From the sequence record NC_054928.1: 64,000 bases of DNA. The stretch is one strand, 5' to 3'. This document shows, in pieces, positions 10,191 through 53,181 of the stretch. Numbering within the stretch: the stretch's first letter is position 1; each line of letters starts with the position of its first letter. Position numbers and translations under genes: made by a program. The notes beneath the pieces were generated by a model. It was not told the DNA's origin and searched no databases. It was given only the letters and a program-made list of their open reading frames with translations. This stretch comes from Escherichia phage vB_vPM_PD112.

Positions 10191-10722
10191 TACTGGCTCA
10201 TCCATTCTTTACGAAGGTCAGCATTATCTCCCATGAGCATTTCAAAAAGCTCTTTCCAATTCTCAGGAAGTTTAACAACATCATATACTGGGTTTTGAAT
10301 CATCTCACGATATTCAGATTTTTCCAAAGAGCCAAGTCCCTTAATATAACGGATGCTATGTTTAGGTAGAGCATCTTTGGCACTCTCATATTCAGCGACT
10401 GTATAAAACCATTCTTGTTTTTTGCCGACCTGAGCGATGATTACAGGAGTTTTGACAAAGCGAATTCTTCCTTGTTCAAACAGTTCTGGCCAATTACTAA
10501 AAAATCCGAGCAGAGAAGGATAAATAGAACCTAATCCAATAATCTCTTAATTATGAGGTATTTCTATAGATAGCCCGAAGGCTATCCATCGTGATCTGCG
10601 TCTGTCATAATAGCGACATTCGCATAGTTCATTGAAGAGGATTTAATAGAACGACGAACATTGTTCTGCAATTTATATTTTTTCATATCAACGCTAGAAG
10701 AATCAATTTTTACAAATTTCAT
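10190..10722 (-). CDS. 60: DNA topoisomerase II subunit gp60, made by 50-nt translational bypass
   Basis: Codons 1-46 at 10722-10585 (MKFVKIDSS...TDADHDG), then UAG; decoding resumes at UUA 10534 (LGSIYPSLLGFFSNWPELFEQGRIRF...MSQ) to stop 10190-10192; 160 aa total as in T4. Confidence 0.95.
10535..10584 (-). other. gene 60 coding gap (ribosome bypass element)
   Basis: Take-off GGA 10585-10587, stop UAG 10582-10584, take-off hairpin UAGCCUUCGGGCUA, landing GGA 10535-10537. Confidence 0.9.
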
Positions 10723-11521
10723 TATACACCTCATAGAACTTTTCATCAGGAATCCAACCGCGTTTAAATTCATTAAATGCTCGGCCGAATAATTTTGAAT
10801 TCACAGTTATATTATTAACTGATTTCCATTTAGCAACTCCTGTTCGTTTATAATGATCGGGGTCATATTTCGTGACGTACCATTCATATAAATTTGGTAT
10901 TAATTTTACAGCCTCTGGATTTGTCGCTGATTTATTATACCATGGTTTCGCTTTTTCAAGTTCAGCTGCTTTTGCAGTAGCAGCAACAGTATTTCCAATA
11001 CCAACTAATTTTTCAGCTTTAATGCGTGGATCATTAACATGAAGACGAAAAACTTCGCCCTTTTCATTTTTAAAGCATGTCATGCCTTTAATTCCAGGAA
11101 GCTTAACACCTTTATTAACACCACACCATTCCTTTGGGTTAAATGATCCTTTAATTAATAAGGCGCATTTACCCGATTTAATACTTCTCATTAAAACTTT
11201 ATCTTTCATAAAGTTTTTTGACCATTCAGATACTGCTCTTTGATGGTAAATTCTAGCAATTTCATATAATTTACTAGAACGTAAATATTTTTCAGTGTTT
11301 AACATTCTATTCATCGCATATGCCATTTCACGATTACGATGAATTTTATATAGTAGAAAATGTGCTAAAAAGTGTTCACGAAAAGTCAGTTTCACCAAAT
11401 TTTCTTTATCATCAGAACCTCCCATTGATCTTGGAAGGATATGATGAATTTCACCCTTAAATTTAGAAACGCGGGTTTTACCCCGCACTATTAAGTCATT
11501 ATAGATTTTTTCGTAATTCAC
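10703..11521 (-). CDS. mobA: MobA, HNH-family homing endonuclease
   Basis: 272 aa ORF with HNH motif EIHHILPRS...N...H near the N-terminus; no ATG before the motif (track start is GTG) and no clear SD. Confidence 0.8.
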   Translation of the reverse strand: MNYEKIYNDLIVRGKTRVSKFKGEIHHILPRSMGGSDDKENLVKLTFREHFLAHFLLYKIHRNREMAYAMNRMLNTEKYLRSSKLYEIARIYHQRAVSEWSKNFMKDKVLMRSIKSGKCALLIKGSFNPKEWCGVNKGVKLPGIKGMTCFKNEKGEVFRLHVNDPRIKAEKLVGIGNTVAATAKAAELEKAKPWYNKSATNPEAVKLIPNLYEWYVTKYDPDHYKRTGVAKWKSVNNITVNSKLFGRAFNEFKRGWIPDEKFYEVYNEICKN

Positions 11522-23386: not shown

Positions 23387-23425
23387 AATAAACTCCTTTA
23401 TTGTTTAATTACAAGTGTATTTATA

Positions 23426-31137: not shown

Positions 31138-31803
31138 TTATAATAGTGTTCTTGTTCCACGAAATACTTCGAGCATTCTTGCATAAGATTTATTTGGAAA
31201 TCCAGCCTCAATTGCTAATTTTTTAAGCTTAATAGCACCGGGTTTTCCAGAGTTTTCCCATATTTCTTTAATCTTTTCAATGTTACCCCACATTATTGGG
31301 TCACGTTTATGTGATGGTTTATTTCTATTATAACCATATGGATTATTAAGCAAAGCTTCTTTTCGTCTTGCTTTAGTTTCTTCTGACTGCTTTTTGCCTA
31401 GCTGGACTTTCCGGCAAACATCACTAAATCCAAGATGTTTTGGTTTTCCTTTTTGAGCTTTCGAAATTTTTTCTTTAGTTTCTGATGAAACTCTATAACC
31501 AATTCTTCTACCACCCTCTCCGCCAATTTTTAAATTATAGGTCATAGGATCATTTACAACATCTATTGTTACTAATTCTCTTTCAGCATCCCGGGCTGAT
31601 TTAAAATCTTTATAAAACCCAAGAATGCTTAAATTAAAATTTTTCTTACCATACTTTTTCTTGGCTTGTGCTAATAAAGTTCCTGACCCCAGATAACCAT
31701 CATTTAAGTCATCGGTTGAATGAGTTCCGTAGTAAATTTTATTATTAACTAAATTAGTTATAACATAAGTATAATTATATTTCTTTTCTTTGTGTCTTTT
31801 CAT
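31138..31803 (-). CDS. segA: SegA, GIY-YIG homing endonuclease
   Basis: 221 aa from first ATG; GIY-YIG motif YVITN...KIYYGTHS and NUMOD-like repeats; position after uvsX as in T4. Confidence 0.9.
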   Translation of the reverse strand: MKRHKEKKYNYTYVITNLVNNKIYYGTHSTDDLNDGYLGSGTLLAQAKKKYGKKNFNLSILGFYKDFKSARDAERELVTIDVVNDPMTYNLKIGGEGGRRIGYRVSSETKEKISKAQKGKPKHLGFSDVCRKVQLGKKQSEETKARRKEALLNNPYGYNRNKPSHKRDPIMWGNIEKIKEIWENSGKPGAIKLKKLAIEAGFPNKSYARMLEVFRGTRTLL

Positions 31804-31807
31804 GTCA

Positions 31808-32650
31808 TTAATCAACTGCTATTGGATGAATAGCATTAAACTTATGAAACGCTTCTGATTTTTCTTTGCGCGAAACACACATGCGAAGAACCTTTAATGG
31901 CTCGTCTTCTTCACCCAACGATTTTCGTTTTTCAATATTAGAAGTTTTCCAACGAGCTTGCTCTGGAAATTCTCTATTGATTTGCTCGAGAGCTCTATTA
32001 TGTTTTGAATTACTACGAATTGAACTACATCCGCCAGGAGCTTGTGCTTTTCCGGATACAACCAGATATTTGAACAAGGCCAAATGCGGATAACCTTGAT
32101 TAATTAAATTGAGAAATGCATACATATCTTCGCATAAATCAATTTTTCCATACCCAATTTGTTCTGTTGTAAGTTTTCCAAGGTCATACCATGTATTCGT
32201 GAATCCATATGAATTTTCACGATAATTACCCCAAGATGAAGTAATTTTAAAAATAGGTAGACGAGCATGGCCATGATAATACCCGCAATCCATGGCATCT
32301 TCAACGTATTGAATCAATTCATAGAACTGTTCACGAGTTAATTGATTAATTTTATCTACGCAGCGACGATCATCTTTCTTTCGCATTGAACTCATACGAA
32401 TAGTAGTATCATCATCGATCATCCAAATTCGTTGACCTGCATACATATCAGTAATTGCTTTACGAGTTCCAGCAATTCCATTAACATCATCAGGAATAGT
32501 TACAATTTTAGCTCTAGACCCGTAAGCGTCATAATAAGCTTTTTCTTCATGTTCACGTACTACAATATGAGGTTCATAATCAGTCGGAAACATATCAAGG
32601 GCAGAAACTGCCCCTACACGTTGATAGCTTGGAATTACGAATTGAATCAT
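31808..32650 (-). CDS. GT-A fold (family 2-like) glycosyltransferase in the T4 beta-gt slot
   Basis: 280 aa; FVIPSYQR N-terminus and DxD-like WMIDDDTT; too short for T4 beta-gt (351 aa). Confidence 0.7.
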   Translation of the reverse strand: MIQFVIPSYQRVGAVSALDMFPTDYEPHIVVREHEEKAYYDAYGSRAKIVTIPDDVNGIAGTRKAITDMYAGQRIWMIDDDTTIRMSSMRKKDDRRCVDKINQLTREQFYELIQYVEDAMDCGYYHGHARLPIFKITSSWGNYRENSYGFTNTWYDLGKLTTEQIGYGKIDLCEDMYAFLNLINQGYPHLALFKYLVVSGKAQAPGGCSSIRSNSKHNRALEQINREFPEQARWKTSNIEKRKSLGEEDEPLKVLRMCVSRKEKSEAFHKFNAIHPIAVD

Positions 32651-49337: not shown

Positions 49338-49808
49338 TTAATCATGTTTCCACACCCCATCGGTATTTGACCAAAGTCGCTGATTATCTGATCCTCGCCA
49401 CAGCTTTTTGGTCGGAAGATTTTTCTCATACTTCCCATCAATAATAACATCAACATATTTAAGCATTTCTAGTTGTTTAATATCTTCAAACTTATATCCT
49501 GTCCACAACCAAATGCTTTTATTGGGATAAAGATTTTTTACTGTTTGAACAATGCAATGAACATCATCTCGGTTATCAGGATAAAGAGGGTCTCCTCCAG
49601 TTATAGTTAATCCTTCTATATAATCATTATTCAAACATTCAATTAATTGTTCTAGTGTTTCACCAGTGAATGGAACGCCATTTCTAGCATTCCATGTTGA
49701 TTTATTATAACACCCTTCACATTTATGCAAACACCCCGTAACGAAAAGAACGACCCTGCATCCAGGGCCATTTACAAAGCAGCACGGGTATATTCTGTCA
49801 TAATTCAT
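49338..49808 (-). CDS. nrdG: anaerobic ribonucleotide reductase activase (radical SAM)
   Basis: 156 aa from ATG (track adds a TTG extension); CxxxCxxC in GCLHKCEGCYN. Confidence 0.9.
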   Translation of the reverse strand: MNYDRIYPCCFVNGPGCRVVLFVTGCLHKCEGCYNKSTWNARNGVPFTGETLEQLIECLNNDYIEGLTITGGDPLYPDNRDDVHCIVQTVKNLYPNKSIWLWTGYKFEDIKQLEMLKYVDVIIDGKYEKNLPTKKLWRGSDNQRLWSNTDGVWKHD

Positions 49809-50047
49809 AATAATATCCAATTTTTCCAAGCTTCATCAGTAGAATTACAGCGTTTTAGTATAAGATGTCTAGAAACTTTTATGGCATTTGAGCACTTTTT
49901 AATTGAATCATATTTTAATAAAGCGGCACGAATCAATGTTCCTGACCCCATATAACCGTCATTTATGTTATCGGTGCTATGCGCACCGATATATTCCTTT
50001 GAATTAATTATATTTGTTATTTTATAAATTATATAATACCTATGCAT
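49805..50047 (-). pseudogene. truncated GIY-YIG homing endonuclease remnant, 80 aa
   Basis: YYIIYKITN...KEYIGAHSTDNINDGYMGSGTLI parallels the SegA N-terminus, then ends with no DNA-binding domain. Confidence 0.6.
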
Positions 50048-51857
50048 GTTTTACTCGTTTTACCATTTCTTTCATTTTACCTAAATTCCATGGAACAACG
50101 CTAGGAGTTCCAAGATATCCGCATGTTCTTCTTATGGTGTTCATCTTTTTAGGATCAGTTTCTCCACAAATAGAACAAACAAATCCGTTCTCGGTTGGAG
50201 TCATTTCATGGGTACTTCCACACGTAAAACATTTATCTACTGGCATATTAACGCCAAAATAATCTAAATGTTGTGCAGCATAATCCCATACAGCCTCAAG
50301 GCCTTTTAGGTTATTTTTCATATCAGGAAGTTCAACATAAGAAATGTGACCGCCTGTCGCGATGAAATGATATGGGGCTTCGCGAGAAATCTTTTCAAAT
50401 GGAGTAATATTTTCTTCTACTGAAACGTGGAAACTGTTAGTGTACCAGCCTTTATCAGTAACATCTTTTACACTTCCATATTTTTCGGTATCAAGTTTAC
50501 AGAAGCGATAGCACAGGTTTTCAGCAGGAGTAGAATACAAGCTAAAAGCAAATCCGGTTCTTTCAGTCCACTGCTTAAGATGAGTATTCATTTTAGTTAA
50601 AATTTCTTGTCCAATATCACGACCGACAAGAATATTCAATTCGTGAATACCAATGTATCCTAGGGACACTGAACTTCTACCATTTTTAAATAACTCAATT
50701 ATATCGTCATCAGGTTTAAGACGAACCCCGAATGCACCTTCCTGGTAAAGAATAGGAGCAACAGTAGCTTTAACTCCTTTTAAGGAACTAATTCTACACA
50801 TCAATGCTTCAAAACATAAATCCATTCGTTCATTGAACAATTCGGCAAATTTCTGTTCATTGAACTGTGTTCCAATATAAGAATCTAATGCAATACGAGG
50901 AAGATTCAGTGTTACAACACCAAGATTATTACGTCCATCAAGAATTTCATTACCAGTCGAATCTTTCCATACGCCCAAGAAACTACGGCAACCCATTGGA
51001 GAAACAGGAATAGATGAACCGGTGATAGCTTTATTGTTCTTAGCCGAAATGATGTCAGGATACATTCTTTTGCTTGCGCACTCTAAAGCAAGCTGCTTAA
51101 TATCATAGTTCGGATCGTCTTTATAAAGATTAACACCTTCTTCAACGAACATAACAAGTTTAGGGAAAATAGGAGTTATCCCATCACGACCGAGACCTTT
51201 AATACGATTTTTCAGAATTGCTTTCTGAATCATTCGTTCAGTCCAGTCAGTTCCCGTACCAAATGTAATTGTTACAAAAGGAGTTTGTCCGTTTGAACTA
51301 AAGAGAGTATTTACTTCATATTCATAAGCTTGGAACGCATCGTATACGTCTTTTTCTGTTTTAGATTGGGCATAATTCAACGCATCAGTGATTTGCCATT
51401 TTTCCGCGTCCTCAATATGTTTCGCATAGGTGCGTTTAACATAAGGAGAAAGTACTTTATCTACATTCGCAAAAGTCGTTCCGCCATATTGATGAGAAGC
51501 AACCTGTGCAGTAATTTGTGCCATAATTGCAGTAGCAACGCCAATTGATTTAGGAGTTTCAATCTGTGCATTACCGAGCTTAAATCCGTTCTCAAGCATT
51601 CCTTTTAAATCTACTAAACAGCAATTAGTAAAAGGCAATGATATACTGTAATCTAAATCATGAAAATGAATTAACCCGGCATTATGAGCATTTACAATAT
51701 GGCTTGGAAGAATACTGCAAGCGATATGTTTAGAAACAATACCGGCCATTAAATCTCTTTTTGTTGGAAAGACACGAGAATCTTTGTTGGCGTTTTCGGT
51801 ATTTAATTCTTTATCTTTATTTGAAATAAAATTTAAAACATCTTTCTCTAAAGACAT
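50040..51857 (-). CDS. nrdD: anaerobic ribonucleotide reductase, glycyl-radical enzyme
   Basis: 605 aa uninterrupted ORF; C-terminal glycyl-radical motif RRTCGYLG and zinc ribbon. Confidence 0.95.
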   Translation of the reverse strand: MSLEKDVLNFISNKDKELNTENANKDSRVFPTKRDLMAGIVSKHIACSILPSHIVNAHNAGLIHFHDLDYSISLPFTNCCLVDLKGMLENGFKLGNAQIETPKSIGVATAIMAQITAQVASHQYGGTTFANVDKVLSPYVKRTYAKHIEDAEKWQITDALNYAQSKTEKDVYDAFQAYEYEVNTLFSSNGQTPFVTITFGTGTDWTERMIQKAILKNRIKGLGRDGITPIFPKLVMFVEEGVNLYKDDPNYDIKQLALECASKRMYPDIISAKNNKAITGSSIPVSPMGCRSFLGVWKDSTGNEILDGRNNLGVVTLNLPRIALDSYIGTQFNEQKFAELFNERMDLCFEALMCRISSLKGVKATVAPILYQEGAFGVRLKPDDDIIELFKNGRSSVSLGYIGIHELNILVGRDIGQEILTKMNTHLKQWTERTGFAFSLYSTPAENLCYRFCKLDTEKYGSVKDVTDKGWYTNSFHVSVEENITPFEKISREAPYHFIATGGHISYVELPDMKNNLKGLEAVWDYAAQHLDYFGVNMPVDKCFTCGSTHEMTPTENGFVCSICGETDPKKMNTIRRTCGYLGTPSVVPWNLGKMKEMVKRVKHA

Positions 51858-52669
51858 AATTCTAATTTATCCTTTTGAAATTCTTCGTCTAAATATGGGT
51901 TCCAACCCATTTTAAACCTTTTGATGAAATTATCAATTCTAAATTTCGGTAAGTTTAAATCCGCAAAAATAGATGATTTACTTTTAAAATCTGGACCTAA
52001 ATAATCATATAAAATTTCTGCGTATTTTAACCATAATATATAAGTACCAGATTTAATTGCTCTCGGAGTTTTCCAAGGTTTTACACCATACATCGGATTT
52101 CCACTTCCTTTATGCCTGATAGAAGATGAAATTCCAATTTTAATTTTAGCTTCCTCTGTATGCGAAAATCCATGATGTGGATTTTCTTTCCAGTATTTTT
52201 TAGAAGCTTCTGATATTTTCTTTCTGGCTAAATTAGTATGATGCTTTCCATAAAATCCATGATTTTTACCTTTATTACGATTTCTTTTAATCATGGTTAT
52301 TGATTGCTTTTTTCTAGTTTCTTTAGAAGGAGAAACACCGTATGTTGTAAATTGACCATTAGCATATGCTAAATTAAAATACTCTTTATTCCATATATCT
52401 TTTTCTATATTCTTTTGAAATTCAGCTTCAATGCTAGTTATTTGCTCATCTCCGACTAATTGAAAATATAATATTTCAACTTTCGGCGTTTCTTTCAACA
52501 GGGCTTTTTGAAATTCGGAAGATGACGAAGACGAATAATAAAATTTACCATTTTTATCAATAATATTCGTTCCGTCAAAAGTGCAATTGGTTTTACTTCC
52601 AATATAATAATACGGCGGGGTTTTAGCATTAATTCTACTAATAAATGATAGTTTATATACTACATTCAT
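51848..52669 (-). CDS. Seg-like GIY-YIG homing endonuclease
   Basis: 273 aa; divergent GIY-YIG (VYKLSFI...PYYYIGSK) and two NUMOD-like repeats (GKNHGFYGKHHT, GSGNPMYG); free-standing between nrdD and 49. Confidence 0.65.
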   Translation of the reverse strand: MNVVYKLSFISRINAKTPPYYYIGSKTNCTFDGTNIIDKNGKFYYSSSSSSEFQKALLKETPKVEILYFQLVGDEQITSIEAEFQKNIEKDIWNKEYFNLAYANGQFTTYGVSPSKETRKKQSITMIKRNRNKGKNHGFYGKHHTNLARKKISEASKKYWKENPHHGFSHTEEAKIKIGISSSIRHKGSGNPMYGVKPWKTPRAIKSGTYILWLKYAEILYDYLGPDFKSKSSIFADLNLPKFRIDNFIKRFKMGWNPYLDEEFQKDKLELCL

Positions 52670-53139
52670 TTTAAACTCTTTCTAAGCTGCTTCTTAAATG
52701 AAGCTATTAATTGTGTTTTGGTGTCAGATTCATTATATTCAAATCCTCTTTGAAGCATCTCAGCCATCATTTCCTCTTTTCCTAAACGAGAAAATTCCTT
52801 TGATTTATCTCCAACGAAGTTAGGGTGAATATTATTTTGGGTGTAATCGGATTTTAAATAAGTAAGTAAATTTTCTAACCATTCAAGATAATCAACGCCT
52901 TGTCCCTTTAAGCCAGAACGATTAAATTTGTGTTTCATTTGACCTTCTGCAGCATTACACAGATTACAAAGCAATCCACGTACCTTTCCAGCTTTCGGTC
53001 CATTTAATTCATGGTCATGGTCAAGGTGATTAGCTTGAACATCAGGATTTAGTTCTCGTTGGCAAATTAAGCATTTACCGTTTTGTGCATTATAAAATTT
53101 TTGTTTTTCTTCTTTGTATAATTTGCCAGTCAATAACAT
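52666..53139 (-). CDS. 49: endonuclease VII (Holliday junction resolvase)
   Basis: 157 aa, the T4 gp49 length; zinc-binding CLIC...C...C and His motif. Confidence 0.9.
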   Translation of the reverse strand: MLLTGKLYKEEKQKFYNAQNGKCLICQRELNPDVQANHLDHDHELNGPKAGKVRGLLCNLCNAAEGQMKHKFNRSGLKGQGVDYLEWLENLLTYLKSDYTQNNIHPNFVGDKSKEFSRLGKEEMMAEMLQRGFEYNESDTKTQLIASFKKQLRKSLK

Positions 53140-53181
53140 AATAAAACCCTTACCTTGAATAGATAAGGGTATTTATTATTT

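Follow-up and report, generated by a model that had tools for sequence, protein, structure and literature searches.

A SegG-like homing endonuclease gene between gene 49 and nrdD of a T4-like phage probably spreads together with the 5′ end of nrdD

In Escherichia phage vB_vPM_PD112 (NC_054928.1), an open reading frame (ORF) on the minus strand separates gene 49, which encodes endonuclease VII, from nrdD. It occupies positions 51848-52669 of a stretch of 64,000 nucleotides (nt), hereafter called the window, to which all positions refer unless another record is named. The ORF, here called the seg gene for short, has an ATG start and encodes 273 amino acids (aa) followed by a stop codon. We interpret its product as a SegG-type (T4) GIY-YIG homing endonuclease encoded by a free-standing gene, and the gene as part of a cassette that spreads by intronless homing with co-conversion, a reading to which we assign a probability of roughly 80%. 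According to the comparison of carriers with gene-less phages, the probable target of the enzyme is the 5′ part of nrdD in phages without the gene.

Results

Sporadic distribution and exchange between genera

At 95-99.6% nucleotide identity, the seg gene is present in 48 phage records, and 47 of the 891 records matching the nrdD-gene 49 region contain it (approx. 5%). Carriers are found in two genera, among them G8, G10400 and fPS-2 in Tequatrovirus and JK42, AV114, ST0 and phage 55 in Mosigvirus. JK42 is a carrier whereas mar005P1 is not, and the JK42 record files both under the same species. At the empty site, represented by BMB16, T4 and mar005P1, gene 49 and nrdD overlap by ATGA, and the ATG of the seg gene stands exactly where the nrdD ATG is located in gene-less phages.

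A sliding 100-nt comparison between the window and Mosigvirus JK42 revealed 97-100% identity only between approx. 51608 and 52707. Outside the cassette, identity amounts to 68-87% in gene 49 and to 87-98% in the remainder of nrdD, and beyond approx. 51608-52707 JK42 follows its sister mar005P1. Copies of the seg gene are 97-99% identical across the two genera while their flanks are far more diverged, indicating recent spread. In these comparisons, the sporadic presence at a precise site between conserved genes together with the lateral spread conforms to the pattern of a homing gene.

The cassette includes a variant 5′ end of nrdD

The tract that moves with the seg gene comprises nt 1-222 of nrdD, i.e. 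codons 1-74 (51636-51857, minus strand). Compared with gene-less alleles, this variant 5′ end shows 62.6% nucleotide and 62% aa identity, whereas nt 223-1650 of the same gene are 96.3% and 99.2% identical, respectively. The low nucleotide identity and the saturation of synonymous sites (proportion of synonymous differences, pS, 0.76) argue for an old foreign allele and not for a recent recoding. Between the window and Mosigvirus JK42 the tract is 98% identical. When bases 51600-51850 were used in a sensitive blastn search, 48 records matched at 95% or more, a number equal to that of the seg carriers, and nearly all others at 60-80%. The best match among non-carriers, Citrobacter phage Merlin with approx. 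74%, is in effect no closer than T4 with approx. 71%. Neither Merlin nor the nrdD N-terminus of a metagenomic contig described below (L013), which is only slightly closer to the variant than to the T4 type, qualified as source of the tract.

All eight carriers that were aligned have the variant tract, and in them it ends at nrdD nt approx. 222. Behind this point lies a stretch of approx. 50 nt that is almost invariant and encodes FTNCCLVDLKGMLEN, after which the carriers revert to the nrdD of their own lineage. This stretch (nt 223-279; 51579-51635, minus strand), near-identical in 11 of 11 alleles compared, contains the nrdD-side recombination junction. Across it, JK42, AV114 and phage 55 change from cassette sequence to their own Mosigvirus-type nrdD. 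The junction on the other side (52666-52696, minus strand) consists of an ATGA overlap between the gene 49 stop and the seg start plus the last approx. 27 nt of gene 49, and in Mosigvirus carriers, gene 49 polymorphisms of the Mosigvirus type persist to approx. 27 nt before the stop codon. Judged by these two junctions, the mobile unit exceeds the ORF and includes nrdD nt 1-222. The resulting cassette measures approx. 1,034 bp (51636-52669) and replaces 222 bp. Co-conversion is strongly one-sided, toward nrdD, with less than approx. 30 nt on the gene 49 side versus at least 222 nt on the nrdD side.

A relic in a distant phage contig and the predicted cleavage region

In a distant metagenomic phage contig (L013, Logan SRR27536177), the same gene 49/nrdD slot holds a homologue with 58% identity (P0002). 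Gene 49 is followed there by a 55-codon 5′ fragment of nrdD, the seg homologue, broken in two by a frameshift (possibly an assembly error), and a complete nrdD with a different N-terminus. This N-terminus is identical at 46 of 74 positions to the variant tract versus 40 of 74 to the T4 type. The duplicate nrdD fragment and the seg homologue (L013 2188-3180) resemble a scar left by insertion into nrdD. As an arrangement of genes, this is consistent with the leftover expected from one-sided repair after a break in nrdD at or beyond codon 55; illegitimate repair of this kind has been described for T4 introns (PMC2988022). Mismatches between carriers and non-carriers are densest at nrdD nt approx. 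134-168 and approx. 197-224. Based on the relic in L013, the common junction after nt 222 and the density of mismatches, we place the putative cleavage site at nrdD nt approx. 130-270 of gene-less phages. The region of nrdD codons 55-90 encodes the highly conserved segment HD(I/L)DY...PFTNCCLVDLK.

Intronless homing as described for SegF and SegG involves a promoterless gene that is co-oriented with its neighbours and an enzyme that cuts in an adjacent gene hundreds of bp away, and the repair copies the gene plus the sequence between gene and cut (PMC2988022). By analogy, the overall picture at gene 49/nrdD matches this description. In a mixed infection, the enzyme would cut the ordinary nrdD allele of a phage without the seg gene within its first approx. 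270 nt, most likely at nt approx. 130-270. The break would be repaired with the carrier genome as template, and the seg gene together with the variant 222-nt nrdD segment would be copied into the recipient. Most likely, the variant segment would also shield the carrier from its own enzyme. In carriers, the seg gene takes over, by means of the ATGA overlap, the translation start that nrdD uses in gene-less phages. Cleavage itself, the position of the target and the role of the variant tract in self-protection are all predictions from comparative sequence analysis.

Domain architecture and kinship to T4 SegG

The protein starts with a SegG-type GIY-YIG catalytic domain (aa approx. 1-110; 52340-52669), continues with a linker carrying two NUMOD3 motifs (aa approx. 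112-195; 52085-52336) and ends with a SegG-like domain presumed to bind DNA (aa approx. 196-273; 51851-52084; all on the minus strand). Among 50,697 phage records searched with tblastn, T4 SegG was the closest named relative (39.8% identity over aa 1-126, E 3e-17). BLASTP with T4 SegG directly returned 51 of 128 identities (40%, E 5e-27) in the N-terminal domain, and the PHROGs family phrog_7504, named homing endonuclease, matches the N-terminal 126 aa (E 9e-34). The C-terminal similarity to SegG was not found by BLASTP. When aa 186-273 were aligned with the C-terminus of SegG by Smith-Waterman, the score was 72, as compared to a shuffle mean of 25.4 with a standard deviation of 4.7 (z 9.9; 72 was reached by 0 of 1000 shuffles), and the C-terminal domain aligned with the SegG-like metagenomic protein P0004 at z 24.5. 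Furthermore, phrog_655 matches aa 118-264 (E 1.1e-7). In Pfam, NUMOD3 was detected in two stretches above the curated cut-off (E 1.1e-8), the better one at aa 130-153, and neither a zinc finger nor a helix-turn-helix was detected in the 273 aa. The NCBIfam model TIGR01453, group I intron endonuclease, gave only a sub-threshold match to aa 63-184. Over the C-terminal half of the full-length structural model, the predicted local distance difference test score (pLDDT) is below 60, and because of this low confidence the C-terminal fold is left without assignment.

T4 SegG, whose gene is positioned between genes 59 and 32, has 210 aa and no Pfam match at all. The approx. 60-80 additional aa in the middle of the 273-aa protein hold both NUMOD3 motifs. 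Both end domains are SegG-like, with the NUMOD3 linker inserted between them. With an identity of only 40%, the protein is a SegG-type paralogue at another locus and not an orthologue of SegG, nor is it an orthologue of any other of SegA to SegH. Across records, GenBank labels the gene product mostly as homing endonuclease, in some cases as hypothetical protein and once as SegG (MK962756); the latter is a label of similarity, not of orthology.

An earlier note, made from the sequence alone, had described a 273-aa ORF between nrdD and gene 49 as a free-standing Seg-like endonuclease with a divergent GIY-YIG motif and NUMOD-like DNA-binding repeats. The ORF has exactly these coordinates and its neighbours were identified by Pfam; the repeats are the two NUMOD3 stretches, and the Seg-like GIY-YIG character is borne out by PHROGs, by the homology to SegG and by the profile-profile links described below, with no Pfam match to the catalytic motif. 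The same note held that the named seg family could not be decided from the sequence alone. Homology tools do permit an assignment: T4 SegG is the closest named relative, and the N-domain (E 5e-27) together with the C-domain (z 9.9) places the protein in the SegG type.

In a further metagenome contig (L014 4001-4822, ENA ERZ13617658), a SegG-type catalytic domain with 56% identity is joined to a different C-terminal half (P0003). The gene immediately follows that of the gp5 baseplate hub, in a neighbourhood where T4 has segC. This suggests that, at other loci, recombination has joined the same SegG-type catalytic domain to different DNA-binding halves.

The N-terminal domain is a divergent GIY-YIG domain

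A profile of 18 N-domains was searched among 5.8 billion sequences. Y5, R12, P19, Y22, G24, S25, K26, Y44, S47, E81, N99 and A103 are invariant in this family, in which the GIY motif is degenerate to V-V-Y. The profile retrieved two proteins, P0104 (E 2e-13) and P0107 (E 6.5e-11), which both pass the curated cut-off of the Pfam family PF19835 (SegE_GIY-YIG). The tie of the N-domain to PF19835 is transitive only, via P0104 and P0107. Comparison by hhalign of the SegG-like profile with this intermediate group gave 99.1%, and comparison of the intermediates with Pfam-positive GIY-YIG domains gave 96.4%. Aligned directly with the Pfam-positive domains, the SegG-like profile reached 90.3% (E 1.5e-6) over the C-terminal half of the domain, and this alignment matches E81 with the catalytic Glu and N99 with the Asn of the YN motif (E75 and N90 of I-TevI). 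An earlier hhalign run with a narrower canonical GIY-YIG set had yielded only 23%; the rise to 90-99% came with the addition of Seg-type sequences and of the intermediate group to the reference set.

The AlphaFold model of aa 1-112 has a pLDDT of 90.5, a predicted template modelling score (pTM) of 0.83 and the order beta-beta-alpha-beta-alpha-alpha, with strands at aa 2-8 (VVY) and aa 21-26 (YYIGSK). As modelled, the N-domain has the alpha/beta fold of GIY-YIG domains. An extra beta-hairpin occupies the region after the YIG strand. The motif Y44-x-S-S47 stands where other Seg proteins have Y-x-G-S-G, and R12 and K26 are likewise invariant. Neither phmmer nor a profile search against PDB returned anything meaningful; in the structural line for the N-domain, the entries that followed were the GIY-YIG protein 9u75, T4 EndoII, Eco29kI, UvrC and SLX1.

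Selection on the seg gene

Pairwise ratios of nonsynonymous to synonymous substitution rates (dN/dS) among seven intact copies range from 0.06 to 0.72 and do not exceed 0.47 except in the near-identical pair of AV114 and phage 55. Third codon positions account for 26 of the 43 variable sites. By these measures the ORF is under purifying selection, and it is intact in seven of the eight copies examined. Y5, Y22, E81 and N99 are conserved with T4 SegG. Purifying selection, sharing between genera and conserved catalytic residues together argue for an enzyme that is active or was so very recently.

Organization of the locus

The window is DNA of a T4-like phage, and the closest record for positions 39001-64000 is Escherichia phage vB_EcoM_CE1 with 98.8% identity. 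Upstream of the seg gene lies gene 49 (52666-53139, minus strand; Pfam Endonuclease_7, E 8e-22, and Endonuc-dimeris, E 1.5e-33), downstream lies nrdD (50040-51857, minus strand; Pfam NRDD, E 1e-170). Within 51848-52669 the ORF list contains no further ORF longer than 44 aa. The 3′ end of the seg gene and the start of nrdD overlap by 10 nt (51848-51857, minus strand), and the ribosome-binding region of nrdD falls within the seg coding sequence. Presumably, nrdD draws on this ribosome-binding region inside the seg ORF. The seg gene itself is presumably expressed by read-through and translational coupling from gene 49. Matches to sigma-70-like promoters were set aside and not relied on, as they are consensus matches in AT-rich DNA.

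A stem-loop with a 10-bp stem followed by a T-run is located just upstream of the gene 49 start (53146-53170, minus strand), and in the records of G8, G10400 and fPS-2 a terminator is marked at the corresponding position. The stem-loop may limit read-through into the gene 49-seg-nrdD unit.

Other endonuclease genes

Next to the 3′ end of nrdD, the slot between nrdG and nrdD that T4 fills with mobC contains an 80-aa remnant of segH (49805-50047, minus strand). It is internally deleted: its two pieces match the segH annotated in phage PP01 with 98.8% identity, and in full-length copies they extend over 828 nt. The last 165 nt of nrdD (50043-50207) are 79% identical to other alleles versus 96% in the middle of the gene. 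Because this second mosaic patch lies beside the deleted segH, both ends of nrdD bear traces of endonuclease cassettes. Elsewhere in the window, a segA-like ORF follows uvsX (31138-31815, minus strand; Pfam GIY-YIG and NUMOD3, E 3e-9), and a 272-aa ORF occupies the mobA slot between rIIA and gene 39 (10703-11521, minus strand). Where the earlier note had counted three GIY-YIG-related loci plus an HNH mobA, the segA-like gene is Pfam-positive and the locus at 49805-50047 turned out to be the deleted segH; the HNH assignment of mobA stayed below threshold, with 20.1 bits versus a cut-off of 21.4.

In Yersinia phage fPS-2 (L010) and in vB_EcoM_G8 (L012, 41846-45508), nrdD is interrupted by a group I intron with an endonuclease ORF (I-TevII in PMC2988022). 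As fPS-2 also has a full-length segH, up to three selfish endonuclease genes reside in or beside its nrdD.

Discussion

Our reading of the seg gene as a mobile SegG-type endonuclease gene has to be weighed against several observations that speak against it. The Pfam GIY-YIG models (PF01541 and PF19835) do not match the protein even at E≤1, as is likewise the case for T4 SegG, and Foldseek found no significant match in PDB with the full model or with the N-domain model. No aligned counterpart of the catalytic arginine (R27 of I-TevI) was found, as in other Seg proteins. Some copies are decaying: those of Pu-Krd-SF3 and SF4 are frameshifted near codon 245, where the same 1-nt insertion cuts off the last approx. 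28 codons (L011 1586-2323 for Pu-Krd-SF3). A motif scan of the window found no T4 late promoter motif near the seg gene. The late-promoter core TATAAATA has a single match on both strands of the 64 kb, far from the seg gene at 23418-23425 (minus strand), compared with a mean of 10 (standard deviation 3.4) in dinucleotide-preserving shuffles and at least one in all 100 shuffles; it appears to be strongly avoided across this early/middle gene region. The strict linkage of the variant tract could mean only that recombination is suppressed in a segment of 63% identity and would then be no sign of self-protection. The direction of transfer (gain versus loss) cannot be told from sequence. Finally, a literature search retrieved no paper on a seg gene between gene 49 and nrdD.

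Given the frameshifts in 2 of 48 copies, the split homologue in L013, the internal deletion of the neighbouring segH in this window and a canonical catalytic arginine that is not identifiable, one might regard the seg gene as a decaying or inactive relic. It would then be kept by hitch-hiking and by the nrdD start, which together with the ribosome-binding region lies inside the seg ORF and favours retention, and the recombination at the locus would be ordinary homologous exchange, not driven by an endonuclease. We consider this unlikely, since seven of eight examined copies are intact with dN/dS well below 1, since Y5, Y22, E81 and N99 are shared with SegG, which is active (PMC2988022), and since 97-99% identity in two genera versus diverged flanks speaks for recent spread. 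It is highly improbable that the main role of the protein is to regulate the gene 49-nrdD operon by sequence-specific DNA binding, or to attack competing phages through marker exclusion without homing. To be sure, I-TevI doubles as an autorepressor (PMC2988022), the seg gene sits within an operon, and NUMOD3 and the C-terminal domain are modules of the DNA-binding type common to other homing endonuclease families (phrog_655). A regulator is at odds, however, with purifying selection on the whole catalytic domain, and the pattern of presence and absence along with the co-converted tract is that of a mobile element. Marker exclusion, for its part, is a known consequence of homing and no alternative to it (PMC2988022).

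The position of the target deserves separate consideration. Intron-encoded relatives cut no more than 25 bp from their insertion site (PMC2988022), and the insertion point of the seg gene is exactly the gene 49/nrdD junction. Accordingly, the enzyme might cut gene 49 or this junction, and the variant nrdD tract might be a mere passenger from the original donor. This appears rather doubtful in view of the one-sidedness of co-conversion in every carrier (less than approx. 30 nt versus at least 222 nt) and of the L013 relic, in which 55 codons of resident nrdD still precede the seg gene. Moreover, within one genus carriers do not differ from non-carriers at the 3′ end of gene 49, which so gives no protection from self-cleavage, and the cut made by free-standing T4 endonucleases usually lies hundreds of bp away from the gene that encodes them (PMC2988022). 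A target in the 5′ part of nrdD, reached by a free-standing homing endonuclease, is in our view the better explanation.

The data may be taken one step further. The mobile unit would be a composite in which the endonuclease and a substitute for codons 1-74 of the gene that it targets, diverged since ancient times, move together across genera. Along with segH or mobC at its 3′ end and the I-TevII intron in its middle, three unrelated selfish elements would divide nrdD into modules that can be exchanged separately, and the L013 relic would mark the break point, with cleavage near nrdD codons 55-90. We regard the chances of this extended view as about even.

The endonuclease locus at gene 49/nrdD is absent from the classic T4 list in PMC2988022 and gives the T4 model system one more free-standing endonuclease, as yet uncharacterised. 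Natural data outline the cassette, both recombination junctions and a candidate target region of approx. 140 nt. They show cleanly, in a natural setting, how an endonuclease gene takes a diverged part of its target gene from one genus to another, and that up to three selfish elements can flank or interrupt nrdD in a single phage. In sequence records, the labels SegG and hypothetical protein could be replaced by SegG-like GIY-YIG homing endonuclease. The understanding of such elements as a whole is unchanged; though uncharacterised, the seg gene is an ordinary and expected member of a class well known in T4-like phages.

Comparison with known systems

The GIY-YIG homing endonuclease SegG of T4 (gene 32.1) is active, and its target is gene 32 (PMC2988022). 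Both proteins have the catalytic domain motifs VVY, YYIGSK, Y-x-S-S, E and YFN, and neither of them matches the Pfam GIY-YIG models. Like segG as described in PMC2988022, the seg gene has no promoter motif of its own and is part of an operon co-oriented with its neighbours. In contrast, SegG is encoded at the 32/59 locus and the present gene at gene 49/nrdD, its presumed target being nrdD instead of gene 32, and SegG has 210 aa without NUMOD3 as compared to 273 aa with two NUMOD3 motifs.

SegH and MobC target the anaerobic reductase genes (PMC2988022, citing Sandegren et al. 2005). Their genes, like the seg gene, are free-standing endonuclease genes that abut nrdD. They lie in the nrdG/nrdD slot and thus at the opposite (3′) end of nrdD. 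The ORF in the nrdG/nrdD (mobC) slot of T4 is tagged phrog_655, a family that our protein matches with its DNA-binding half as well. The GIY-YIG domain of SegH is of the classic Seg type, and MobC belongs to the HNH enzymes.

With I-TevI and I-TevII, the protein shares the layout of catalytic domain, linker and DNA-binding domain (PMC2988022). I-TevII, encoded in the nrdD intron, also targets nrdD and coexists with the seg gene in fPS-2 and G8. Unlike these enzymes, the present protein is encoded outside introns, contains an extra beta-hairpin and has no identifiable counterpart of R27 of I-TevI, and no zinc finger or helix-turn-helix was detected in it.

SegF (Belle et al. 2002, cited in PMC2988022) belongs to another branch of the protein family and to another locus, and the mechanism proposed here is inferred from comparative sequence only. 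Like segF, the seg gene is free-standing, encodes a GIY-YIG enzyme and replaces, as it spreads, part of the neighbouring gene of the recipient, and in both cases cleavage is expected at a distance of some hundreds of bp.

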